From the NCBI GenBank assembly GCA_964345045.1, contig CAYFPM010000001.1, positions 539,264-603,263 of the forward strand: a DNA stretch of 64,000 bases. Direction: 5' to 3'. Origin of the DNA: an uncultured Gammaproteobacteria bacterium. Its GTDB lineage: Bacteria > Patescibacteriota > Patescibacteriia > Magasanikbacterales > UBA922. Shown piece by piece: positions 2,097 to 59,736 of the stretch. Every line of letters begins with the position of its first letter. Within the stretch, counting starts at the first letter, position 1. Made by a program: the position numbers and the translations under genes. The notes beneath the pieces were generated by a model. That model ran no database searches. It saw nothing but the letters and a program-made list of their open reading frames with translations, and had not been told where the DNA came from.

Positions 2097-3090
2097 AATT
2101 ATTTTTAAATTCTAGGAGCAAATCTTCCAATTCTTCTAGAGAATTAACTCTTACCAATTTTCCTCGAAATTCTTTGATACCCGGAATTTCCAAACCAATT
2201 TTATTAGTTTTGAAATACCAACTAAGATGCTTGCGAAAAGTTACAATCCCCCGTTCGCCATACTGCTCTACATGCAACTTAGCATGACGCAAAACCACAT
2301 CTCCCCTTTCTTCAATTGGAACCAAGAGATCCTTCGACTCCGCTGCGCTTCGTTCAGGATGACTAAGCGCTAGTCTGAAAAACCAAGGGTTGCCAAGAGC
2401 ACCCCTTGCAATCAAAGCTCCGTCTGCATCGGTTTGTTCCAAAACTTCTTTTACTTGATATGGCTCGTGGATGTCTCCATTGGCTAGGAGCGGCACACTA
2501 GCAATTTCTTTGGCTATTTTGATCCTTCCCCAATCACTAACTCCACTATACCCTTGAGCTTTGGTGCGACCATGAATCGTTATCAAATCTGCGCCAGCTT
2601 TTTCTACCACTGGAATAAAATTTTTAAAATCATCTGGATCACTCCAACCAAGCCTTATTTTTACAGATAGAGGGGTATTACCTATAGCGGCTTTCATTTC
2701 TTTTACAATTTTGGCAGCCAGGTCTGGATCTTTCATTAAAGCGCAACCATTAAAATTGCTGGTGATTTTGTAAACCGGGCAGCCCATGTTTATATCTATA
2801 CCTTCGGGTCTGGCATGTTCCATTACAATTGCAGCAGATTTGGCCATGGTCATAGGATCGGCTCCAAAAATTTGTTGCACGATTGGTCGCTCTGCCTCTA
2901 CAAAATCTGTCATGCCCAAGGTCTTTTCGTTTTCTCGCACAATTGCTTCGCTAGATACCATTTCACGAAACACAACACTGGCTCCACCGATTTGACGCAC
3001 TATTTGGCAAAAAGCCGAATCCGTCATATCGGCCATAGGTGACAGAGCCATAATTTTACCTTTATTTTTTAGAGTTTCTTCTATCCACAT
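2086..3090 (-). CDS. dus: tRNA-dihydrouridine synthase (Dus family, TIM barrel)
   Basis: matches Dus motifs (MADMTDSAFCQIVRQ..., GIDINMGCPV, KIRLGW); the true start is probably the internal MALSP... Confidence 0.85.
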   Translation of the reverse strand: MWIEETLKNKGKIMALSPMADMTDSAFCQIVRQIGGASVVFREMVSSEAIVRENEKTLGMTDFVEAERPIVQQIFGADPMTMAKSAAIVMEHARPEGIDINMGCPVYKITSNFNGCALMKDPDLAAKIVKEMKAAIGNTPLSVKIRLGWSDPDDFKNFIPVVEKAGADLITIHGRTKAQGYSGVSDWGRIKIAKEIASVPLLANGDIHEPYQVKEVLEQTDADGALIARGALGNPWFFRLALSHPERSAAESKDLLVPIEERGDVVLRHAKLHVEQYGERGIVTFRKHLSWYFKTNKIGLEIPGIKEFRGKLVRVNSLEELEDLLLEFKNNFSK

Positions 3091-3285
3091 AAACTAAAAG
3101 TTGTTTGAGTTTTCTAAGTTTACTAAGTAACTAAAATAAAAAACTTAGTTAACTAAATAAACTTAGCCAACCTAGCAAACTTAGAATAAGTTATCCCCAT
3201 ACTACCCACTTTTTACCCAAAAATCAACCCTTGCCAAGAATATAGATTGCTGATAATGTGCCTATACAACCAAACACATTTATTG

Positions 3286-3400
3286 TGGAACTGGGGTTAG
3301 AGTCCCCGACTGTGCCGCAACGGTAAAGTCCTCCAACTACTTGAGAGGAACAAGTCCGATCTTCGATAAATGTGCCAATCCCGAGCAGGATAAAAAGTCA
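3286..3400 (+). ncRNA. candidate cobalamin (B12) riboswitch aptamer
   Basis: GGAACTGGGGTTAGAGTCCCCGACTGTGCCGCAACGGTAAAG resembles the E. coli btuB riboswitch core (GGGAATCCAGTGCGAATCTGGAGCTGACGCGCAGCGGTAAGG); the downstream genes are B12-binding-type proteins; the 3' B12-box half was not confidently recognised. Confidence 0.4.
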
Positions 3401-3423
3401 AAATAATTTGACCAAGTCTTAAA

Positions 3424-3448
3424 TCTCTGCTCGCAGCAGATTTTTTTA
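3424..3448 (+). terminator. intrinsic terminator immediately upstream of the 3455 ATG; likely the riboswitch expression platform
   Basis: TCTGCT-CGC-AGCAGA stem followed by TTTTTTT. Confidence 0.5.
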
Positions 3449-3454
3449 TTTAAA

Positions 3455-3895
3455 TTGCCTATGAAAAATTTTCTCAAAAACCACAAAGTGCATTTGGCCA
3501 TTTTTTTGGCTCTGGTAGCCATAGCTATAGTTTCTAACAATTACAGCACTAACAAAGAAAACAGCCCCCCGCAAATAATAAAAGAAGTAAGTACCTTATC
3601 GGCAACTATCCAGATAGAAAACGAGGATAGCCTGACAACCAAAATAAAAGAAGAAAGTACAGTTCTAGACTTAATGAAAAAATTAAAAGAAAAAGAGCGA
3701 CTAACTTTTGAAAGTAAGAATTTTGGATCGGGACTTGGAGAATATATCGAATCTATAAACGGTAAAAAAAGCACAGACAAAGAATTTTGGATTTACTACA
3801 TTAATAACAAAAAAGCTACAGTTGGTGTATCGACCTACAAACTGCAGCCAAATGACATAATAACTTGGAAATATGAACAAGATGAAACAAATTAG
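3455..3895 (+). CDS. DUF4430-domain secreted protein (transcobalamin beta-domain-like, putative B12 binder)
   Basis: signal peptide; C-terminal GxGLGEYIESINGKK...EFWIYYINNKKATVGVSTYKLQPNDIITWKY pattern typical of DUF4430. Confidence 0.55.
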   Translation: MPMKNFLKNHKVHLAIFLALVAIAIVSNNYSTNKENSPPQIIKEVSTLSATIQIENEDSLTTKIKEESTVLDLMKKLKEKERLTFESKNFGSGLGEYIESINGKKSTDKEFWIYYINNKKATVGVSTYKLQPNDIITWKYEQDETN

Positions 3896-5879
3896 TTTGG
3901 GGTTGGGTTTAATCACCCTATTGCTATGGCCAGGCAAAGAGGTACTAGCTGCCAACGAAATAGAAGTAAACGTACGAATAGAGGGACCTTCGGCCAATAT
4001 AGTTGATCAAGCTGTACAAATCCCAGATAGTTGTACAGTTACAGATTCTGCCGGAGGTACCCACACCTTTACCAATTACGAGGCTATCTGTGCTCTACAA
4101 GTACTAAAAGAAGCCGGTACCATTGATTTTCAAGCTACAGATTGGGGCTGGGCTATGGCACTAGACAGCATAACTAACATAAAAAATGCTAGTGATTGGA
4201 GTGAATCTTGGTTTATTCGTATAAATAGCGCTACTTCCAACTTTGGGATAGATTCTTTGGTACTTAATCCAAATGATCGTTTACTTTTGGGCTACGGTGG
4301 TTGGCCTTTTCCAGAACCATTACTTTTTGAAAAAACAGGTAATGCTGCCAAAATTGGAGATTCAGTTACCTTTGTCACAAAAATTTGGAATGACGACAAT
4401 GGAGGTTACGAAGATTATCAAAGTCCTGTTATTTTTTATCTAAAAGGAACTCCAATCTCATCGGAAAATGGAGAGATCACTTGGACAGTAGACACCATTG
4501 ACACTTTTCCTATTTGGGTAGAAGCAGTAGGAAAAATAAGAAGTCCCAAATATCAATTTGAACCAAAAGCTACAGAAGCTAATTACATTGGAAATCAAGT
4601 AGGACTAAATACCAAAGAAGCTGTTGATTTTCTAGAAAAAAATCAAAACAAAGACGGCTCATTTGCCAAAAACCAATTATTTTCCGACTGGGCCGCGATT
4701 GCTTTGTCTACACAAGACACCAACAATTCTGCCAGACAAAAAATCACTAACTATCTATTACAAGGAAGAAAACCCGGAAAAAATACTACAGATTACGAAA
4801 GAAGAGCTTTGGCACTTTTGACATTAGGAATTAATCCCTATGATGTAAATGGTAGAAATTATATAGAACCAATTGTAAATGATTTTGATGGAACTCAAAT
4901 TGGTAACAAAGATTATGTAAACGATGATATATTTGGGCTACTTGTCTTGAGAAAATCTGGATTTGATTTGAGGGAAGAAATAATAACAAAATTGACCAAC
5001 CATATTCTCTCTAACCAAAATAAAAATGGTTCTTGGGCAGAAAGCACAGATATGACCTCTGCTGCTATCCAAGCCCTTCAAACAGTAGAAGGAGCCACAA
5101 ATGTTTACGAAGCTTTGGAAAAAGCAAAAAGATATATAAGAACCCAACAAAAAACAAATGGTAGTTTCAACAACAGTGCCTACTCTACAACTTGGGCAAT
5201 ACAGGCAATTACCACTTTGGGAATGGATGCTTCTGACTGGTACAAAAACGACAATACTCCTGTAAATTATCTAGCCGCCTTGCAAGAGCCCGATGGAGGT
5301 TTGGGAAAAGATTCTCCTATTGAAATGAGGATTTGGTTAACTTCCTACGCTATTCCAGCTTCTTTAGGCAAAAGCTGGGCAGATTTGATGCATGAATTCC
5401 CAAAAGGAGAAATAAAAATAATTGAGAAAAAAGAAGAAACACAGGAAACTTTGGAAGAAACAAAAGAAGAAATAATCTCAGAAAAAACAGAACTTAATAT
5501 CAAAGAAAATATTAAAGAAGACACTGAACCTTTGGAACCTGAACCAAAATTAAGCGAAGAAGTTTTGAAATTAAAAATTGTAGAAGATATATCGGTAGAA
5601 GAACCTAAACAAAATATTATTAGCACAAACCAAATAGAAAGAGAAAGACCTGTAGAGATAGCAGAAGTTGTAGACAATCAAACCGAAGAAAAGATTATTG
5701 AAAACGAAGATCCTGTAATTCTGGAAACAGTATCTGCCGATGGTTCTGTACTGGCTGCTGCCGATAATTTGCCTACAGAAGGATCAAACAGCGCTAGAAA
5801 TGTATTTCGAACAGCTACTACCCTAGCCACCACCCTAGGAGCCTATTTGGCTTGGAGAGCCTTGCAGACTATAGTGTAA
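3873..5879 (+). CDS. surface protein: DUF4430-like domain + alpha/alpha-toroid (prenyltransferase/terpene-cyclase-like repeats), acidic linker, LPTEG sortase signal; transcobalamin-like
   Basis: signal peptide; repeats KDGSF/KNGSW/TNGSF/PDGGL with aromatic residues; LPTEG at 5769-5783 followed by a hydrophobic stretch and a basic tail. Confidence 0.55.
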   Translation: MNKMKQISLGLGLITLLLWPGKEVLAANEIEVNVRIEGPSANIVDQAVQIPDSCTVTDSAGGTHTFTNYEAICALQVLKEAGTIDFQATDWGWAMALDSITNIKNASDWSESWFIRINSATSNFGIDSLVLNPNDRLLLGYGGWPFPEPLLFEKTGNAAKIGDSVTFVTKIWNDDNGGYEDYQSPVIFYLKGTPISSENGEITWTVDTIDTFPIWVEAVGKIRSPKYQFEPKATEANYIGNQVGLNTKEAVDFLEKNQNKDGSFAKNQLFSDWAAIALSTQDTNNSARQKITNYLLQGRKPGKNTTDYERRALALLTLGINPYDVNGRNYIEPIVNDFDGTQIGNKDYVNDDIFGLLVLRKSGFDLREEIITKLTNHILSNQNKNGSWAESTDMTSAAIQALQTVEGATNVYEALEKAKRYIRTQQKTNGSFNNSAYSTTWAIQAITTLGMDASDWYKNDNTPVNYLAALQEPDGGLGKDSPIEMRIWLTSYAIPASLGKSWADLMHEFPKGEIKIIEKKEETQETLEETKEEIISEKTELNIKENIKEDTEPLEPEPKLSEEVLKLKIVEDISVEEPKQNIISTNQIERERPVEIAEVVDNQTEEKIIENEDPVILETVSADGSVLAAADNLPTEGSNSARNVFRTATTLATTLGAYLAWRALQTIV

Positions 5880-5911
5880 TAGTATATCCTGTAGAATATA
5901 AAATAAAAAAT

Positions 5912-6433
5912 ATGAAAAAAAATACTCTAATACTTACAGCCCTATTAATTGCTCTAGGCATTGCTGGTAGGCTACTCCCCCACCCGGCCAATTTTACTCC
6001 AGTAGCAGCGATTGCTCTTTTTGGAGCATTTTACCTGCCCAAACGCTGGGCTGTAGTTTTGCCTCTTTTGGCAATTTTGCTTAGTGATATCTTTATTGGT
6101 TTTTACAATCCAAAGATGATGATCGCTGTTTATGGTAGTTTTGCCATAACTGGTGCTATTGGTCTTTATTTCCGAGAGAAAAAAAGCTTTGCAACAGTAG
6201 CAGCTAGCACCTTGCTTGGTTCGATTATCTTTTTTCTGGTTACCAATGCCGCTGTTTGGGCCTTTGGCACTATGTATACCAAAGATTTAGCAGGACTCTT
6301 GAACAGCTATACCATGGCTATTCCATTTTTTAGAAATAGCTTACTTGGAAATGTGTTTTTTGTAAGTTTGTTGTTTGGTAGTATGGAAATGCTTTTATCC
6401 ACCCAAAAGAAAAAAGCTTCTCTAAAAACTTAA
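5912..6433 (+). CDS. small multi-TM membrane protein, ECF-transporter S-component-like (CbrT-like candidate)
   Basis: ~173 aa, 5-6 TM helices; sits in the putative B12 operon; start taken at MKKNTLIL (5912) rather than the upstream in-frame ORF start. Confidence 0.4.
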   Translation: MKKNTLILTALLIALGIAGRLLPHPANFTPVAAIALFGAFYLPKRWAVVLPLLAILLSDIFIGFYNPKMMIAVYGSFAITGAIGLYFREKKSFATVAASTLLGSIIFFLVTNAAVWAFGTMYTKDLAGLLNSYTMAIPFFRNSLLGNVFFVSLLFGSMEMLLSTQKKKASLKT

Positions 6434-43723: not shown

Positions 43724-44089
43724 TTATTCTTTACGAAATGGCCAACCTTTCCCCGTGCACGCAGGACACTTATAGTTTTTCCAACTCTTTCTAAAACAGA
43801 GAGGAGCCTTTTTTTCATTGAGAGTCTGCAAAGGGTATTTGCCTGGTTCCAATATGTAGACAGTGATTTCCCCCATAAACTTATTCTTCATATAAATCCC
43901 CCCGCCTCCACATTTTTGACAAGGCTTAGAACCAACAGGTACCAACACCTGACCAGAGCCTTTGCAAACATGACAATCGTGAACTAGGCGGAAAGTAAAG
44001 AAAAAAAACTCCTTCCCTGTGTGCACCAGCTTACCGGTGCCCGAACAAAACTGGCAATCTCTAGACTCGTAATTCACTTCATGACTCAT
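43724..44089 (-). CDS. small Cys-rich protein with four DnaJ-type CxxCxGxG zinc-finger motifs
   Basis: CQFCSGTG, CHVCKGSG, CQKCGGGG, CPACTGKG. Confidence 0.5.
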   Translation of the reverse strand: MSHEVNYESRDCQFCSGTGKLVHTGKEFFFFTFRLVHDCHVCKGSGQVLVPVGSKPCQKCGGGGIYMKNKFMGEITVYILEPGKYPLQTLNEKKAPLCFRKSWKNYKCPACTGKGWPFRKE

Positions 44090-45617: not shown

Positions 45618-45935
45618 TCATTCCCGCGTACGCGGGAATCCAGTTAGCAAATCATTACCACTCAAGTCCACCCAGTTAGGATTATCTTTTTCAATCAACT
45701 CAACCTTCCAAGCTCGATTCCACTTTTTCAATTGTTTCTCCCTTTTTATGGCATCATTAATACTGGGATACACTTCATAGTAAACCAACATATGGACATT
45801 ATATTTTTTGGTAAAGCCTTCATTCCTACCAAAAGAATGCTCAACCATTCTTCTGGATAAGTTATTAGTAACACCAATATAAAGCGTACCATTACGCTTA
45901 CTTGCTAAAATGTAAACAAAAAAATCCCTCCTCAT
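45618..45935 (-). CDS. GIY-YIG nuclease family protein (UPF0213-like)
   Basis: FFVYILASKRNGTLYIGVTNNLSRRMVEH; its C-terminal FPRTRE is encoded by a GC palindrome. Confidence 0.8.
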   Translation of the reverse strand: MRRDFFVYILASKRNGTLYIGVTNNLSRRMVEHSFGRNEGFTKKYNVHMLVYYEVYPSINDAIKREKQLKKWNRAWKVELIEKDNPNWVDLSGNDLLTGFPRTRE

Positions 45936-45985: not shown

Positions 45986-48900
45986 CTATACAACAACACT
46001 CACCAACCTCCCCTTCACATAAATCACCTTTTTCGGTTCTTTGCCCTCTAGCCATTTTATAACATTCTCTTGTTCTAGAGCTGTTTTCTTCACTTCTTCT
46101 TCACTAATTTCGGCTGGCACTTCTATAGTCGCCCGTACTTTACCATTTACCTGCACCGCGATTTTGACTACATCGTCGACTATTTTTTCTTTGTCATACT
46201 CTGGCCAAACGGATAGTGAAACAAATTCTTCAAATTCAAACATACCCGCAATCTCTTCGGCCAAATGCGGAGCAAATGGAGCCATTAATTTTTGCATGGC
46301 AATAACTGAACTGTAGTTCACTGTAGGAACTTCCTTAGTTCCAATATTCTTTCTTAGGATCATCAATTGGCTCACGGCAGTATTGAATCTCATTCCATCC
46401 AAATCTTCACCAATCTTCTTGATAGATTTGTGCAAAAGCTTTTCAAATTCTGGATTATTCTCACCCATGTACTCCCCATTTTTGTAAACTGCAAAATTGT
46501 CCCCTATATTTTCTTTTAGCTCTGCAAAGTAATCGTACCAACGATCCAAAAATCTGCGTACCCCTTTTACCCCGTCATCATTCCACGGCTTGGTCTGTTC
46601 TAGCGGCCCCATAAACATCTCGTAGGTACGCAAAGTGTCGGCTCCAAACTCATTAACTACATCAGTGGGGTTAATCACATTACCCCAGCGTTTACTCATC
46701 TTTCTATTATCTTCTCCCAATATAAGTCCTTGATGACGATTCTTGGTAAATGGCTCATCGAAATCAATGTAACCTGCATCAAATAAAACCTTGGTAAAAA
46801 AACGTGAGTATAAGAGGTGTCCATTGACATGCTCTTCTCCACCTAGGTAAAAATCTACTGGCATCCAAGCTTTCAAACTTTCTGGAGAAGCAAATTCATT
46901 TTCATTGTTTGGGTCTAGGTAACGGAAGTAATACCAAGAAGAACACATAAATGTATCCAATGTGTCTACCTCGCGCTTCCAACCTGCACCATATTTTTCC
47001 TCTACTCCTTTTTGAAATTCTTCGGAATATGTAAGTGGAGATTGACCAGTTGGTTTAAAATCTACGTCGCTTGGGAGTAATACTGGGAGATCTTTTTCTG
47101 GAACTGGTTTCAAACCAGAAACAAATACTTCTTCCAAAATTGCCGGCTCTACCAAACCAGTCAAATGATCTTCGTTTGCACTGGCATACACTACTCTTGC
47201 ATCAAAGATATTTACTTGTTCGTCTATTTGTTCTTTTTTGATTATAGGATAATTTTTGTCTGCAATAACAACTGTTTCTTGTGGTAAATCTTTTATTGAA
47301 GCAAAATCAAATTGTAATTTTGCTTCATCACGAAATTCTCTTTCTTTTCCATCATTAAATTCTGGTCTTAGCATGGTATCTATCAATACCAATTTGGCAA
47401 TAGGCTGTTTGGTTTTTGCCAAAAGATGAAATGCCACTGGACCACCATGGCTATGAGCTACCACAACGGTATCTTTGTCCAATTTTATATTTTCAAATAA
47501 ATAATTGGCCTGTTCTGTGGCATTTGGTATTTCTGTATTTGGCAAATCTAGCACCACAACTTTGTGACCTTTTGCTTCTACTTGTGCTTTTAACCACGGC
47601 CAAAAATCTGACTCTGCTGTACCACCTCGTCCATGAATAAAAACATATTGTCTTTTGCTCTCTGCTTCTTGTTCATTGACCAGAATTGGCAATGGTGCTC
47701 CCCAAAAACGCTGGCGAGACACAGACCAATCGCGGAGTTTGTATTGAACTTTACTTTCTCCGTAACCACCATCTACAATCTTTTGCAAAATCTTTTTTCT
47801 ACCTTCCTCATAATCAAATCCATCAAATTCTTCTGAATTTATCAATTTAAACTTCTTTTTGTCTTTTTTTATCTCTGCGTAGCTTACAAACTCTTCTTTT
47901 GAATCCACCACACTTATAACTTCCAAACCAAACTTCTTGGCAAATTCATAATCACGTTCGTCTGCTCCAGGCACAGCCATAATAGAACCAGTTCCATAGG
48001 TAGCCAAAACATAATCTGAAATCCACACTGAAATTTCTTTACCGTTTATAGGATTAATAGCTTTTATTCCCTTTAGTTCTACTCCGGTCTTTTCTTTTTG
48101 GGTTTGTCTATCTAATTCTGTTTTCTTGGAAGTTTCTTTTATATACTTTTCAACTTCATCAATATTTTCAACAATTGTTTCTTGTTTCTTGCCTGCCCCG
48201 TTAGCTTGTCTTTCGGGGTTTCTTGTTTCTTCGAGAAGCGTAGCGACGAGCTCATGCTCTGGTGCCAAAACCATAAAAGAAACTCCGTAGATAGTGTCGT
48301 GAGCGGTGGTAAAGACTGGAATTCTGAATTCTGAATTCTGAATTTCAAAATCAATCTCTGCTCCTTCCGAACGCCCAATCCAATTCCTCTGTCTCATCTT
48401 TGTCTCCTCTGGCCAATCAATCTTATCAAGATCTGCCAAAAGTCTGTCGGCATAATCAGTAATTTTCAAATACCATTGCTCCATTTCTTTTTGCACTACC
48501 ACGTCATCACTACGTTCACACTTACCATCTACCACTTGCTCGTTGGCCAGAACTGTTTTACAACCATCACACCAGTTTACACTTTGCTTTTTTCTATAAG
48601 CCAAACCACGCTCGTACATAAGAAGAAAAAACCACTGGGTGAATTTGTAATACCCAGGATCAGAACTACGCACAAACCTATCCCAATCAACCGAAATTCC
48701 AAGAGACTTTACTTGAGACACAAACATCTCACCAGTTTTGTCGATAGTTTCTCTGGGGTGTACATTAGTCTTAATTGCATAATTCTCGGCTGGCAAACCA
48801 AAAGAATCCAAACCAAAAACTTGAAGGACTTTCTTACCCTTCATACGCAAGTAACGAGCATAAATATCGCAGGCAGTATAAACCTCGGCATGGCCTACAT

Positions 48901-49048
48901 GCAGCCCAGATCCAGATGGGTACGGCAGCTGTGGCAGCACATAAGCTTTGTTTTCGGGGGTAGCATCGGCTGGAGTCTTGAACACCTCTTCTTCTTCCCA
49001 TATCTCTTGCCACTTAGCCTCTATCTCTTTTGGGTTATATTCTTTCAT
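45986..49048 (-). CDS. leuS: leucyl-tRNA synthetase with an inserted YdeN/RBBP9-like serine hydrolase domain
   Basis: HVGH class-I motif, CP1 editing domain, KMSKS; residues ~458-645 (YVFIHGRGG...DFWPW...VVAHSHGG) match the Ser_hydrolase fold. Confidence 0.95.
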   Translation of the reverse strand: MKEYNPKEIEAKWQEIWEEEEVFKTPADATPENKAYVLPQLPYPSGSGLHVGHAEVYTACDIYARYLRMKGKKVLQVFGLDSFGLPAENYAIKTNVHPRETIDKTGEMFVSQVKSLGISVDWDRFVRSSDPGYYKFTQWFFLLMYERGLAYRKKQSVNWCDGCKTVLANEQVVDGKCERSDDVVVQKEMEQWYLKITDYADRLLADLDKIDWPEETKMRQRNWIGRSEGAEIDFEIQNSEFRIPVFTTAHDTIYGVSFMVLAPEHELVATLLEETRNPERQANGAGKKQETIVENIDEVEKYIKETSKKTELDRQTQKEKTGVELKGIKAINPINGKEISVWISDYVLATYGTGSIMAVPGADERDYEFAKKFGLEVISVVDSKEEFVSYAEIKKDKKKFKLINSEEFDGFDYEEGRKKILQKIVDGGYGESKVQYKLRDWSVSRQRFWGAPLPILVNEQEAESKRQYVFIHGRGGTAESDFWPWLKAQVEAKGHKVVVLDLPNTEIPNATEQANYLFENIKLDKDTVVVAHSHGGPVAFHLLAKTKQPIAKLVLIDTMLRPEFNDGKEREFRDEAKLQFDFASIKDLPQETVVIADKNYPIIKKEQIDEQVNIFDARVVYASANEDHLTGLVEPAILEEVFVSGLKPVPEKDLPVLLPSDVDFKPTGQSPLTYSEEFQKGVEEKYGAGWKREVDTLDTFMCSSWYYFRYLDPNNENEFASPESLKAWMPVDFYLGGEEHVNGHLLYSRFFTKVLFDAGYIDFDEPFTKNRHQGLILGEDNRKMSKRWGNVINPTDVVNEFGADTLRTYEMFMGPLEQTKPWNDDGVKGVRRFLDRWYDYFAELKENIGDNFAVYKNGEYMGENNPEFEKLLHKSIKKIGEDLDGMRFNTAVSQLMILRKNIGTKEVPTVNYSSVIAMQKLMAPFAPHLAEEIAGMFEFEEFVSLSVWPEYDKEKIVDDVVKIAVQVNGKVRATIEVPAEISEEEVKKTALEQENVIKWLEGKEPKKVIYVKGRLVSVVV

Positions 49049-49940: not shown

Positions 49941-49975
49941 CAAAACACCTCTTTTTACGAGGTGTTTTTTATTTA
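49941..49975. terminator. bidirectional terminator (AACACCTC ... GAGGTGTT + TTTTTT)
   Basis: read directly in the sequence. Confidence 0.65.
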
Positions 49976-50745
49976 AAAAATTCCATTACCTTCGGGTGTA
50001 GCTTGGGGTTGGCTATTATCATGTCTTGCCTACCACGCTGCCAGGGGTTACCATCGGCATCGGTAATAGTTGCTCCAGCTTCTTTGCAAATAAGATATGG
50101 GGCTAGAAAATCATGATCCAGCCCAGCGTTTTGTAGCCAAAAATCCACTCCTCCCATAGCTAGGTAACAAGTTGCTAGCATAGTACCGTACTGGTGGACC
50201 CAGATATTACTTTCTTCTATCATTCTTACAAAAGCTTTTCGAAATTCCTCTACCTTTGTACCATACGGGCCGGTAATCTCTGGAACTCTGGCAATGTAGG
50301 CATAGGCATGGTCAAGTATTTCGGTGTTATTTACACTAATTTTTTTGTCATTCATATAAGCCCCTTCGCCAACTTTGGCAAAAAAAAGCTCGTCGGCATT
50401 GGGATTGTAAACTGCAGCCATGTATGGCTCACCATTTTTTAATACCGCTACAATTTGGCACCATATAGAGATACCCATGGCAAAGTTACGTGTACCATCT
50501 ACCGGATCTATCACCCATTCGTATTCTGCTCCTGGGTTAATATCTTCTTCCATCTCTTCGCTTTTTATATGGTGATCTGGATATTTGGCATGAATTTCGC
50601 TAACCAAAAATTCGCTAACCGCAATATCGGCATCTGTAAGCAAATCCCCCAGATTGGATTTGACAGTATGTTTGACCCCGGCATCAAAATATTGTTTGGC
50701 CAAGGCTCCGGCTTCTTTTATCTTTTGTTTGAGAAATTCTTCCAT
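49969..50745 (-). CDS. inositol monophosphatase family protein
   Basis: WVIDPVDGTRNF motif. Confidence 0.8.
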   Translation of the reverse strand: MEEFLKQKIKEAGALAKQYFDAGVKHTVKSNLGDLLTDADIAVSEFLVSEIHAKYPDHHIKSEEMEEDINPGAEYEWVIDPVDGTRNFAMGISIWCQIVAVLKNGEPYMAAVYNPNADELFFAKVGEGAYMNDKKISVNNTEILDHAYAYIARVPEITGPYGTKVEEFRKAFVRMIEESNIWVHQYGTMLATCYLAMGGVDFWLQNAGLDHDFLAPYLICKEAGATITDADGNPWQRGRQDMIIANPKLHPKVMEFFK

Positions 50746-58436: not shown

Positions 58437-58485
58437 GATCAAATGATAATGGCGCATTTGCGCCCAACACAAGAGGAGTACCACA

Positions 58486-59736
58486 GTGTCTCACGAGAAG
58501 GAAGGGCCTCGAAGGCCAATCGACATCATCCAAGAATACTCACTCCCGCTCATCGCGGGGGTGATCGGTGCAATGTTGTGGGCCAATCTGAGCCCACACT
58601 CCTACCACGAGTTCATCCACTTCTCTCCGTTCGCGGAGGGGAACCCCCTGCACGTACTGAACTTCCACTTCCTGATGAACGACTTCGTGATGGTCTTCTT
58701 CTTCGGAATCGCTACCAAGGAGATCACCGAAGCCTGCCTCCCCGAAGGAGACCTCAACCCTCCGAGGAAGGCAGTGAACCCGCTGCTGGGAACGCTGGGA
58801 GGAGTGATTGGACCCATCGCGGTCTACAAACTCTACGTCTACTTCACGGGTGCCGAAGCCATCAGCGAAGGCTGGGGCATCCCCACCGCAACTGACATCG
58901 CGCTCGCGTGGCTACTGGCTCGTGTAGTTTTCGGGAAGAATCACCCAGCAGTGAGCTTCCTGCTCCTGTTGGCCGTGGCCGACGACGGACTCGGACTCGG
59001 CATCATCGCCGTCTTCTACCCAGATCCTTCCCACCCGGTGCAGCCAGCCTACTTGGTACTGGTGGCCATCGCCATGGCTGGCGCGTACTACTTGCGAAGG
59101 AAGAATGTACAGAACTACGGGGTCTACCTCGTAGGGCCAGGAGTTCTCTCCTGGGCCGGCCTTTTCCTGGCACACCTCCACCCAGCGCTCGCGCTGGTGT
59201 TCGTGGTTCCTTTCTTGCCCAACATGGGTCATGACGACGGCATGTACGCGGAGATGAGTACTGGAAAAACGTACCTCGATCCGCTCAACAAGTTCGAACA
59301 CGCTGTCAAGCTGCCAGTGGATCTCGGACTCTTCGGGTTCGGCCTGGCCAACGCTGGGGTGGAGTTCTCGAGCATGGGTCATGGTACCTGGGCAGTTCTG
59401 GCCGGGCTGCTACTCGGCAAGACTGTAGGTATCTTCGGCTTCTCGATGCTCGGCCACCTGAGTGGCAAGGCGCCCCTCCCCGAAGGGATGCGCTGGAACC
59501 ACTTGCTGGTCGCCGGCATCGTGGCAGGTCTCGGTCTGACCGTAGCTCTGTTCGTGGCAGGAGTCGCGTTCACCGAACCTATGTTGCAGGGTGCGGCCAA
59601 GATGGGTGCACTGCTTTCGGCATTCATTGCCCCCATCGCGGTCGTGGCAGGTTTCGTCCTGCGTGTGAAGGACGAAGACAAATCACCCGTCGATCTGAGC
59701 AGTGCTGCCGAAGCGCCAGCCACCAGCAGCAGCTGA
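58486..59736 (+). CDS. nhaA: Na+/H+ antiporter NhaA (GTG start); GC-rich island gene
   Basis: GIPTATDIALAWLLA and LLLLAVADDGLGLGIIAVFY signatures; SD AAGAGGAG at 58471-58478. Confidence 0.85.
   Translation: MSHEKEGPRRPIDIIQEYSLPLIAGVIGAMLWANLSPHSYHEFIHFSPFAEGNPLHVLNFHFLMNDFVMVFFFGIATKEITEACLPEGDLNPPRKAVNPLLGTLGGVIGPIAVYKLYVYFTGAEAISEGWGIPTATDIALAWLLARVVFGKNHPAVSFLLLLAVADDGLGLGIIAVFYPDPSHPVQPAYLVLVAIAMAGAYYLRRKNVQNYGVYLVGPGVLSWAGLFLAHLHPALALVFVVPFLPNMGHDDGMYAEMSTGKTYLDPLNKFEHAVKLPVDLGLFGFGLANAGVEFSSMGHGTWAVLAGLLLGKTVGIFGFSMLGHLSGKAPLPEGMRWNHLLVAGIVAGLGLTVALFVAGVAFTEPMLQGAAKMGALLSAFIAPIAVVAGFVLRVKDEDKSPVDLSSAAEAPATSSS

Follow-up and report, generated by a model that had tools for sequence, protein, structure and literature searches.

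The leuS gene in a 64,000-nucleotide stretch of DNA from an uncultured bacterium (deposited as a Gammaproteobacteria bacterium and placed by GTDB in Patescibacteriota, Magasanikbacterales, UBA922; NCBI GenBank assembly GCA_964345045.1, contig CAYFPM010000001.1, positions 539,264 to 603,263 of the forward strand) encodes a leucyl-tRNA synthetase (LeuRS) in which an entire serine hydrolase is nested. In the following, 'the window' denotes this whole stretch, and positions are counted from its first letter. The insert is a complete, autonomously folding and apparently active serine hydrolase of the YdeN/RBBP9 family (PF06821, DUF1234/COG3545), and the subfamily to which it belongs is genetically tied to LeuRS across many lineages of the Candidate Phyla Radiation (CPR) and lineages labelled as DPANN, in company with both bacterial- and archaeal-type LeuRS. 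We regard it as somewhat better than an even bet that the nested domain would serve as an accessory hydrolase dedicated to LeuRS and acting in cis, its likeliest substrate being an alpha-aminoacyl ester or thioester made at LeuRS.

Aminoacyl-tRNA synthetases and their proofreading domains are among the best-catalogued enzymes, and full-text literature searches found no description of an alpha/beta hydrolase nested in LeuRS or linked to it. A preliminary description of this DNA, which had noticed the insertion, allowed for its being a known domain of all LeuS enzymes; in fact most LeuRS lack it, and AARS Online, the 2024 catalogue of synthetase domains, has no entry for an alpha/beta-hydrolase module, the word hydrolase being absent from it altogether. 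Proteins built in this way have been publicly available since about 2015, some of them under the IMG label 'leucyl-tRNA synthetase/predicted alpha/beta hydrolase family esterase'. What appears to be new is the use of this fold, unseen in such a role, for an accessory hydrolytic module of a synthetase, together with a putative helper activity that has not been described. The link spans two great radiations of ultra-small symbionts and both bacterial- and archaeal-type LeuRS. If functional, it would add a new means of safeguarding translation quality or of detoxifying by-products, with the same cis/trans modularity as is seen in the INS domain of prolyl-tRNA synthetase (ProRS) and YbaK; it would also provide a concrete physiological context for the poorly understood YdeN/RBBP9 family and a natural case of catalytic-acid relocation in an alpha/beta hydrolase.

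The nested hydrolase and its LeuRS host

Profile, sequence and predicted structure agree on the identity of the insert. Pfam matches it to Abhydrolase_1 (E 5.6e-9) and, at 28.8 bits against a cut-off of 22, to Ser_hydrolase (PF06821). Searched alone against the PDB, the insert finds YdeN of Bacillus subtilis (1uxo) as its top match (E 4.7e-6), and the profile derived from 47 orthologous inserts aligns over the full length with YdeN (E 2.6e-31) and human RBBP9 (E 2.7e-19). The AlphaFold2 (AF2) model of the insert, computed from the alignment of orthologous inserts, consists of alternating beta and alpha elements and is of high confidence (pLDDT 96.7, pTM 0.93). When it is compared with the PDB by Foldseek, the top seven hits are chains of YdeN (1uxo, the closest match) and RBBP9 (7oex, 2qs9), with TM scores of 0.75-0.81 over 182-189 columns, well ahead of all other alpha/beta hydrolases. 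The insert thus has the compact, lid-less alpha/beta fold of about 180-190 residues that marks the family, and the YdeN/RBBP9-type domain that the preliminary description had placed after ...SRQRFWGAPLPI and before ...DLPVLLP, with a profile and structure comparison as the proposed check, is borne out on all three counts. Pfam and PDB profile searches returned alpha/beta hydrolases only, and no homology to the known editing modules (CP1, INS/YbaK PF04073, AlaX/tRNA_SAD, DTD), so that the insert, if it edits, would be an editing module of a new kind. Queried by itself in a word-indexed homologue search, the insert gave no match although the identical protein is in the database, which marks the sensitivity limit of that tool.

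The host gene is a single unbroken open reading frame (ORF) of 1020 aa on the minus strand (window 45986-49048, from the ORF list). Its alignment to LeuRS of Thermus thermophilus (1h3n, E 1.1e-209) falls into three blocks, query residues 1-456, 644-778 and 783-1020, and stops at query residue 456 (chain residue 437) to restart at 644 (chain residue 442), which delimits an insert of 187 residues (aa 457-643, window 47120-47680). Since 1h3n is matched at residues 1-437 and then 442-579, these 187 residues stand for four at the first Cys knuckle of ZN-2, in the turn of the beta-hairpin that follows the return from CP1 and that carries the ZN-2 knuckle in T. thermophilus. In the closest relatives that lack the insert, this place is taken by a cysteine-free hairpin of 15 residues (MLYDEKGELHPVPE / PMLYDEKGELHPVPEEDLPV); the insert is located precisely at the turn of this hairpin, whose two strands are kept. 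The full-length AF2 model (pLDDT 84.4, pTM 0.78) shows the stalk strands, residues 455-457 and 646-648, with confidence, and the hydrolase block is its highest-confidence part. The peptides quoted in the preliminary description are all in place (KLRDWSVSRQRFWGAPLPI at aa 437-455, QYVFIHGRGG at 467-476, AHSHGG at 531-536, LVLIDTM at 553-559 and DLPVLLP at 653-659), and the interval it gave, 47113-47680, corresponds to aa 457-646, against aa 457-643 by alignment. The elements of the host and of the insert are as follows.

45986-49048, minus strand: leuS ORF, bacterial-type LeuRS, host of the insert (PF00133, PF13603, PF08264; 1h3n, E 1.1e-209)
48890-48901, minus strand: HVGH, the class I 'HIGH' signature, aa 50-53 (invariant in alignment A2)
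47780-48388, minus strand: CP1 editing domain, PF13603, aa 221-423 (Pfam, E 6.7e-56)
47681-47740, minus strand: block of the catalytic core, KLRDWSVSRQRFWGAPLPIL, aa 437-456, ending in the N-terminal strand of the hairpin (AF2 strand at 455-457)
47120-47680, minus strand: insert, made up of a linker helix, a complete YdeN/RBBP9-type alpha/beta hydrolase and a return linker (PDB alignment, insert-less relatives, fold)
47180-47644, minus strand: hydrolase core, PF06821 match at aa 469-623, profile positions 2-149 of 172 (Pfam)
47072-47119, minus strand: return strand of the hairpin, SGLKPVPEK-DLPVLLP, aa 644-659, where the LeuRS core restarts (AF2 strand at 646-648)
46688-46702, minus strand: KMSKR, the class I 'KMSKS' loop, aa 783-787 (sequence and alignment)
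46100-46444, minus strand: anticodon-binding domain, PF08264, aa 869-983 (Pfam)

The protein around the insert has the features of a class Ia LeuRS of the LeuRS-B type, i.e. a HIGH/KMSKS core (PF00133, E 1.8e-47), CP1, and anticodon-binding and C-terminal tRNA-binding domains, its C-terminal part being aligned with 1h3n to the last residue. With HVGH, KMSKR and the CP1 motifs intact, the gene is predicted to encode a working bacterial-type LeuRS. The leucine-specific domain is not present (1h3n residues 580-636 have no counterpart, the query passing from 778 to 783, window 46703-46714), which holds for the whole clade, and all four ZN-2 cysteines are missing in this clade with or without the insert (hairpin window 47072-47119); as both elements vary among bacterial LeuRS, their absence is compatible with LeuRS-B membership. 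The statement that other LeuS enzymes have only a short zinc-binding insertion at this place is accurate for T. thermophilus-type and many CPR LeuRS, and does not extend to the closest insert-less relatives with their cysteine-free hairpin.

It has to be asked whether so odd an architecture could be an artefact or a selfish element, that is, a chimeric assembly, two genes fused through a frameshift, an intein or a recent mobile element. The G+C content at third codon positions (GC3) of the insert, 0.214, is indeed below the 0.35-0.36 of the flanking parts of leuS, and a small GIY-YIG gene lies just downstream of leuS; yet GC3 values as low as that of the insert occur in 7.7% of same-sized codon windows of the 64-kb window, and a recent foreign origin inferred from composition was rejected on this ground. 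The ORF is continuous, and since independently made assemblies contain the gene in identical form (ENA contig of run ERR2281803, Logan contig of run ERR2281802, NCBI contig of 621 kb), an assembly chimera is ruled out. A check for an insertion footprint revealed only short chance matches among repeats flanking the insert. Neither a Hint/intein match in Pfam nor, at the junctions ...PILVNEQE... and ...VSGLKPV..., the Cys/Ser...His-Asn-Cys/Ser/Thr residues of an intein were found, and with the whole insert taken up by the hydrolase fold a splicing domain could not be accommodated. The same position harbours the insert in more than 60 diverged orthologues. These results refute the artefact or selfish-element explanation, whose probability we put next to nil.

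Distribution of the hydrolase within and beside LeuRS

The insert is a recurrent feature of LeuRS. In the 120 closest LeuRS, most of which bear the label Candidatus Magasanikbacteria or Patescibacteria, the distance from SRQRxWGxPxP to DLPVxLP is bimodal, with 15-16 residues in 57 and 193-229 residues in 63, so that the alignment of LeuS orthologues and the survey of related genomes suggested in the preliminary description both delimit the insert and find the fusion again in relatives. When 1.84 billion representatives were searched exhaustively by HMMER with the insert as query, 568 matches at E<1e-3 resulted; the best 150 of these 568 were examined, and LeuRS accounts for 51 of the 63 matches of at least 300 aa among these 150 best-scoring ones. 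The hydrolase was encountered at three insertion sites, which we designate, in query numbering, A (236/243, at the entry to CP1), B (456/644, that of the window protein) and C (381/402, a surface loop of CP1, seen in metagenome proteins).

For a view at the level of genomes, one genome per GTDB species was scanned with motifs from an eight-sequence alignment, and the counts refer to the best 80 of 109 relatives. The hydrolase is located within LeuRS at 78 of the 80 loci (67 at site A, nine at site B, two unclassified), proportions that are biased upward because the motifs were drawn from LeuRS-resident domains; of the two other loci, one lies inside a valyl-tRNA synthetase (ValRS) and one is free-standing. 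The same scan with the single insert as query retrieved no relatives, whereas the eight-sequence alignment succeeded. The genomes are labelled as CPR (Magasanik-, Falkow-, Uhr-, Komeili-, Vogel-, Lipton-, Taylor-, Kaiser-, Campbell-, Berkel-, Doudna- and Saccharibacteria, and Paceibacterota) and as Woese-, Pace- and Nanoarchaeota (DPANN). Labels call for some care, several CPR metagenome-assembled genomes (MAGs) being auto-labelled 'uncultured Gammaproteobacteria'. MAGs labelled Woesearchaeota, Pacearchaeota or Nanoarchaeota carry a bacterial-type LeuRS with the hydrolase at site A (L012, L018, L021, L023, L028, L029, L039, L058, L067, L075, each about 2280-6000), and either gene transfer between CPR and DPANN or mislabelled bins would account for this. 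These LeuRS align only to query residues 956-996 (956-967 in most), and their C-terminal tRNA-binding domain seems to be shortened. In L067, one of these DPANN-labelled loci, a LeuRS that already has a nested hydrolase (2383-5187) is preceded, at a distance of about 1 kb, by a second and more divergent YdeN-like coding stretch (672-1259, 26% identical to the query insert).

LeuRS is not the sole host of the family. Rarely, the domain occurs in SecA, TsaD, Der/EngA, UvrA, alanyl-tRNA synthetase (AlaRS) and ValRS, or is fused N-terminally to inositol monophosphatase (IMPase) and to S51 peptidases. Examples are the ValRS of L055 (1054-4827) and an AlaRS, P0185, with the domain between its catalytic and editing parts; further proteins with other hosts or fusions are P0173, P0175, P0149, P0187, P0264 and P0237. 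The hosts of the hydrolase family include three synthetases with editing domains. Conversely, the LeuRS of these lineages accommodate other domains as well: a NUDIX domain (PF00293) of ~145-165 aa is nested in the CP1 loop 381/402, i.e. site C, of many CPR LeuRS (22 of the 80 genome loci), with or without the hydrolase (e.g. L095:4062-6935, P0026, P0066, P0121, P0142), and in a few LeuRS the same loop holds a methyltransferase (P0086, P0078) or a HAD domain (P0013). In all, no fewer than three insertion hot spots can be made out in the LeuRS of these lineages. Apparently 'split' LeuRS that begin with the hydrolase (L005, L006, L010, L026, L040, L045) were discarded as a separate arrangement, being frameshifted ORFs in which LeuRS continues in another frame; the same cause probably applies to proteins of the metagenome set that begin with the hydrolase.

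The free-standing relatives provide a test of the link to LeuRS that is less biased than the genome scan. In eight of the nine informative cases the gene is a same-strand neighbour of leuS, seven being separated from it by 0-37 nt and the eighth (locus L083) by co-directional operon genes only; P0139 and P0209 were left out as uninformative. The sole free-standing match of the genome scan, L068, ends 11 nt upstream of an archaeal-type LeuRS (1wz2, E 2.6e-207), and P0141 lies 0 nt upstream of another archaeal-type LeuRS. Bacterial-type LeuRS follow P0137 after 37 nt, P0143 after 3 nt and, on 11 contigs, P0152 after 7 nt, while in the case of P0157 a bacterial-type LeuRS comes first, the hydrolase lies 3 nt downstream of it, and Sua5 is next; P0176 is found 25 nt upstream of a NUDIX-bearing LeuRS. 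P0133, finally, heads a cluster (L083:4001-8549) that comprises the hydrolase, a second hydrolase, a YbaK-like tRNA_edit gene (PF04073), a Ham1 (ITPase-type) pyrophosphatase and an archaeal-type LeuRS. This cluster is co-directional and tightly packed, an operon counterpart of the nested trio of LeuRS, hydrolase and NUDIX. Next to P0125 leuS is not adjacent. Distant family members provide weak controls, as the contig of P0209 ends at the gene and P0246 has a convergent neighbour. That unfused genes adjoin leuS, and with two distinct types of LeuRS, indicates that this hydrolase subfamily is a dedicated genetic partner of LeuRS, either in trans or nested in cis.

The hydrolase does not seem to make up for a decayed CP1. 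In the window protein the T-rich motif of CP1 reads TTAHDT (a variant of TTRPDT, aa 246-251, window 48296-48313) and GTG...GADERD is kept, with both Asp residues present. TTAHDT/GADERD is typical of the query's small subclade of eight proteins, four with the hydrolase insert and four without. TTRPDT is found in 49 of the 63 insert-bearing and in 52 of the 57 insert-less relatives, the conservation of GTG...HDERD is likewise comparable, and LeuRS that bear the hydrolase at site A keep the CP1 motifs equally well. It follows that the hydrolase comes in addition to CP1, and the idea that it replaces a decayed CP1 was rejected as a general rule. In two bacterial-type LeuRS that adjoin a free-standing hydrolase (L088:2831-4558, L094:1078-3498), the T-rich region of CP1 is degenerate (YDSVPQTF vs FTTRPDTL) and the GTG...HDERD segment is altered as well; these two cases, a small sample, hint that the hydrolase may accompany a weakened CP1 in some lineages. 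CP1 of the window LeuRS is also ~19 residues longer than that of T. thermophilus (RQANGAGKKQETIVENIDEV, window 48158-48220, about aa 277-297), and AF2 confidence drops below 50 at aa 283-288.

Catalytic residues and an apparently displaced acid

The catalytic residues were compared across 193 family members, comprising 72 domains at site B, 34 at site A and 9 at site C of LeuRS, 64 free-standing proteins and 14 domains in other hosts. His472, Ser533, Lys552 and His628 are invariant in the orthologous inserts, and the HG motif and the AHSHGG nucleophile elbow, on which the first identification had leaned, proved real and invariant or near-invariant among relatives. The positions concerned are listed below.

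47630-47635, minus strand: His472-Gly473, HG oxyanion-hole motif after beta1 (His in 185 of the 193 members, the rest being gaps or rare substitutions; invariant in alignment A1)
47450-47452, minus strand: Ser533, nucleophile, in the elbow A-H-S-H-G after beta5 (Ser in 72/72 site-B, 34/34 site-A and 9/9 site-C domains)
47378-47380, minus strand: Asp557, right after beta6, candidate relocated acid (Asp in 56 of the 72 site-B domains; strand from DSSP on the AF2 model)
47258-47260, minus strand: Asp597, last residue of beta7, alternative candidate for the acid of the triad (D/E in 59 of the 72 site-B domains)
47249-47251, minus strand: Tyr600, position of the canonical catalytic Asp of the family (RBBP9 Asp138, 'DDP'), acid lost (profile alignment)
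47165-47167, minus strand: His628, catalytic histidine, in the loop that follows the last strand (found in each of the 115 LeuRS-nested domains; invariant in alignment A1; equivalent to RBBP9 His165, 'GHF' motif)

Ser533 aligns with the GHS-elbow serine of YdeN and with Ser75 of RBBP9, and a serine occupies this position in 76 of the 78 members outside LeuRS. The acid behaves differently. At the canonical position D/E is found in all 64 free-standing proteins, in all 14 domains of other hosts and in 30 of the 34 site-A domains, and the position of Asp557 is A/S/G in all free-standing and nearly all site-A members. Among the 56 site-B domains that carry Asp557, the canonical position is non-acidic in 52 (Y/F/H/C/P, others), four carry both arrangements, and nearly all 56 also have D/E at the end of beta7 (Asp597). 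This anticorrelation between the canonical acid and Asp557 points to a relocation of the acid from the loop after beta7 to the end of beta6, with catalysis under selection; it looks as though the acid has moved to Asp557 (or Asp597). With the canonical Asp missing, the insert is classified as a divergent member of the family, by homology and fold, with a non-canonical acid.

The same loss might be taken as inactivation, the fold being retained as a spacer, for dimerisation or as a tRNA-binding surface, and both the non-acidic canonical position (Tyr here) in 52 of 56 subfamily members and the elbow A-x-S-x-G instead of G-x-S-x-G would fit a catalytically dead module. We consider this quite improbable: the nucleophilic Ser and the catalytic His are invariant in the 115 LeuRS-nested domains and the HG motif is kept, and the loss of the acid is matched by an Asp after beta6 and D/E at the end of beta7, with four intermediates, which is the signature of a maintained triad.

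Possible roles of the LeuRS-linked hydrolase and its genomic surroundings

Known relatives give an indication of what the nested domain may act on. YdeN of B. subtilis (1uxo, COG3545) resembles it in family, fold, size (~180-190 residues), lack of a lid, HG motif, elbow and C-terminal His, and its gene is not known to adjoin leuS in that species. YdeN and ML-005 are free-standing enzymes with a canonical Ser-Asp-His triad, whereas the window domain is nested in LeuRS and has Tyr600 at the canonical position and a new Asp after beta6. The lid-less YdeN was proposed to act on soluble esters or thioesters, and ML-005, of metagenomic origin, is a short-chain esterase (PMC6119806), so that the family includes working short-chain esterases. 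Human RBBP9 (2qs9, 7oex, 9fcr) has the Pfam family and the fold in common with the insert, and its aminoacyl chemistry is close to the deacylation of aminoacyl esters. It is an aminopeptidase that forms an aminoacyl-enzyme and removes from amides one amino acid whose alpha-amine is free (PMC8866121), and it activates valacyclovir, the valyl ester of a nucleoside analogue, as stated in the passage of PMC7730578 that cites Shenoy 2020. In contrast to the insert, with which it has 14-15% identity, RBBP9 is eukaryotic and free-standing and possesses a canonical triad, and its Glu108 is not conserved in the LeuRS-nested domains. We know of no link between RBBP9 and tRNA synthetases. BPHL, the other valacyclovirase, is a serine alpha/beta hydrolase for alpha-amino-acid esters and an efficient homocysteine thiolactonase, by which this by-product of synthetase editing is detoxified (PMC11312131). 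It belongs to another family of alpha/beta hydrolases, is larger, capped and unlinked to any synthetase, and offers an analogy only. Since small soluble esters, or alpha-aminoacyl esters and amides in which the amine is free, are the substrates of the insert's characterised relatives, an alpha-aminoacyl ester or thioester is the most likely substrate.

As to architecture, the nearest parallel is the INS domain of ProRS together with YbaK/ProX (PF04073), in which a hydrolytic module is likewise either nested in the core of a synthetase or a separate partner protein; the fold, however, is unrelated and has no serine nucleophile, and deacylation of mischarged tRNA, demonstrated there, would be a putative activity of the LeuRS hydrolase. 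AlaRS and AlaX display a comparable modularity in cis and trans. CP1 is also a nested hydrolytic domain of the very same enzyme and differs in being universal in bacterial LeuRS and in its fold and mechanism. The ZN-2 element of T. thermophilus LeuRS occupies the same hairpin and is an element of a few residues, compared with an enzyme of 187.

In the reading that we favour, the hydrolase would furnish a second hydrolytic site for quality control or clean-up beside CP1, and candidate substrates would be a mis-acylated tRNA 3' end, an aminoacyl-adenylate or a cyclised by-product of editing such as homocysteine thiolactone. LeuRS is said, from Jakubowski's work, to be among the synthetases that edit homocysteine to its thiolactone. 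The nesting at three sites, the leuS-adjacent free-standing homologues and the one YbaK-like gene make a LeuRS-linked role much more likely than an unrelated moonlighting activity. A more far-reaching proposal is that the YdeN-like hydrolase represents a new serine-nucleophile class of synthetase accessory module in CPR bacteria and DPANN archaea, in cis at any of the three sites or in trans from the adjoining gene, which would act on an aminoacyl ester or thioester that CP1 does not handle, and which might, together with the often co-nested NUDIX or the Ham1 of an operon, constitute a composite 'clean-up' synthetase. Its substrates might then be particular mischarged or D-aminoacyl-tRNALeu, released non-cognate adenylate, or homocysteine thiolactone from LeuRS editing, and the recurring nucleotide pyrophosphatases, NUDIX nested and Ham1 in the operon, fit such a theme of quality control. 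We hold this extended proposal to be possible, at clearly less than an even chance.

Several observations weigh against a dedicated accessory hydrolase. The canonical catalytic acid of the family is missing in the window protein (Tyr600), and its relocation is deduced from alignment and secondary structure; the intact CP1 motifs indicate no evident need for a second deacylase; the genome-scan proportions carry the upward bias noted above; and a neighbour-joining tree of the 193 domains, calculated without bootstrap at ~30% identity and to be used qualitatively, is unresolved and has the categories interleaved. Above all, the rare other hosts and the NUDIX, methyltransferase and HAD inserts fit the view of LeuRS as a permissive scaffold. 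It could then be a mere carrier, in genome-reduced CPR and DPANN, of an autonomous passenger enzyme, e.g. a general esterase, that nests in permissive loops of large, constitutive housekeeping proteins: the same domain turns up inside SecA, TsaD, Der, UvrA, AlaRS and ValRS and fused to IMPase or an S51 peptidase, other domains occupy the CP1 loop of LeuRS in the same lineages, host motifs including those of CP1 are unchanged, and the domain folds confidently on its own (AF2). A carrier, though, would not be expected to have eight of nine informative free-standing relatives beside leuS, with both types of LeuRS, nor does it sit well with 78 of 80 genome loci in LeuRS at alternative sites or with an operon that also contains a YbaK-like aminoacyl-tRNA editing gene, and we consider a passenger rather unlikely.

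Nutrition rather than proofreading might also underlie the link, with an RBBP9-like aminopeptidase or esterase releasing hydrophobic N-terminal residues such as leucine from scavenged peptides to feed LeuRS. CPR and DPANN lineages are generally described as auxotrophic symbionts, and the genetic linkage to LeuRS fits a supply of amino acids as well as it fits editing. RBBP9 itself is an aminopeptidase that requires a free alpha-amine (PMC8866121), and more distant family members are fused to S51 dipeptidase-type peptidases. The amine-binding Glu108 of RBBP9, on the other hand, is aligned with a non-conserved position of the insert (profile alignment), with no specificity determinants mapped; free leucine diffuses, so that physical coupling would be of little obvious benefit; and the co-occurring YbaK-like deacylase, Ham1 and NUDIX suggest quality control instead of nutrition. 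A role in amino-acid supply is in our estimation unlikely.

The architecture also has consequences for annotation. NCBI names several full-length LeuRS 'alpha/beta fold hydrolase' and others 'class I tRNA ligase family protein' (P0026, P0029, P0064, P0270), and owing to the former name the essential leuS could look absent in automated genome summaries.

Scans of the window for tRNA genes and Rfam families gave no matches. Downstream of leuS follow a GIY-YIG-domain protein (window 45618-45935, an ORF of 105 aa, for which gene callers give a 76-aa product), ComEC and, beyond it, a Cys-rich DnaJ-type zinc-finger protein of 121 aa (window 43724-44089); no connection of these downstream genes to the insert was seen. 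An IMPase-family gene is located two genes upstream of leuS on the minus strand (window 49969-50745), and one is likewise found upstream of leuS in L094 (L094:1-507); P0264 is a direct fusion of hydrolase and IMPase, and the recurrence of IMPase near leuS may be a coincidence. Two further ORFs on the plus strand, 58450-59733 and 681-1946, have a GC3 of about 0.70-0.73, as against 0.2-0.4 in the other long ORFs of the window, and are probably non-coding shadow frames of genes on the opposite strand.

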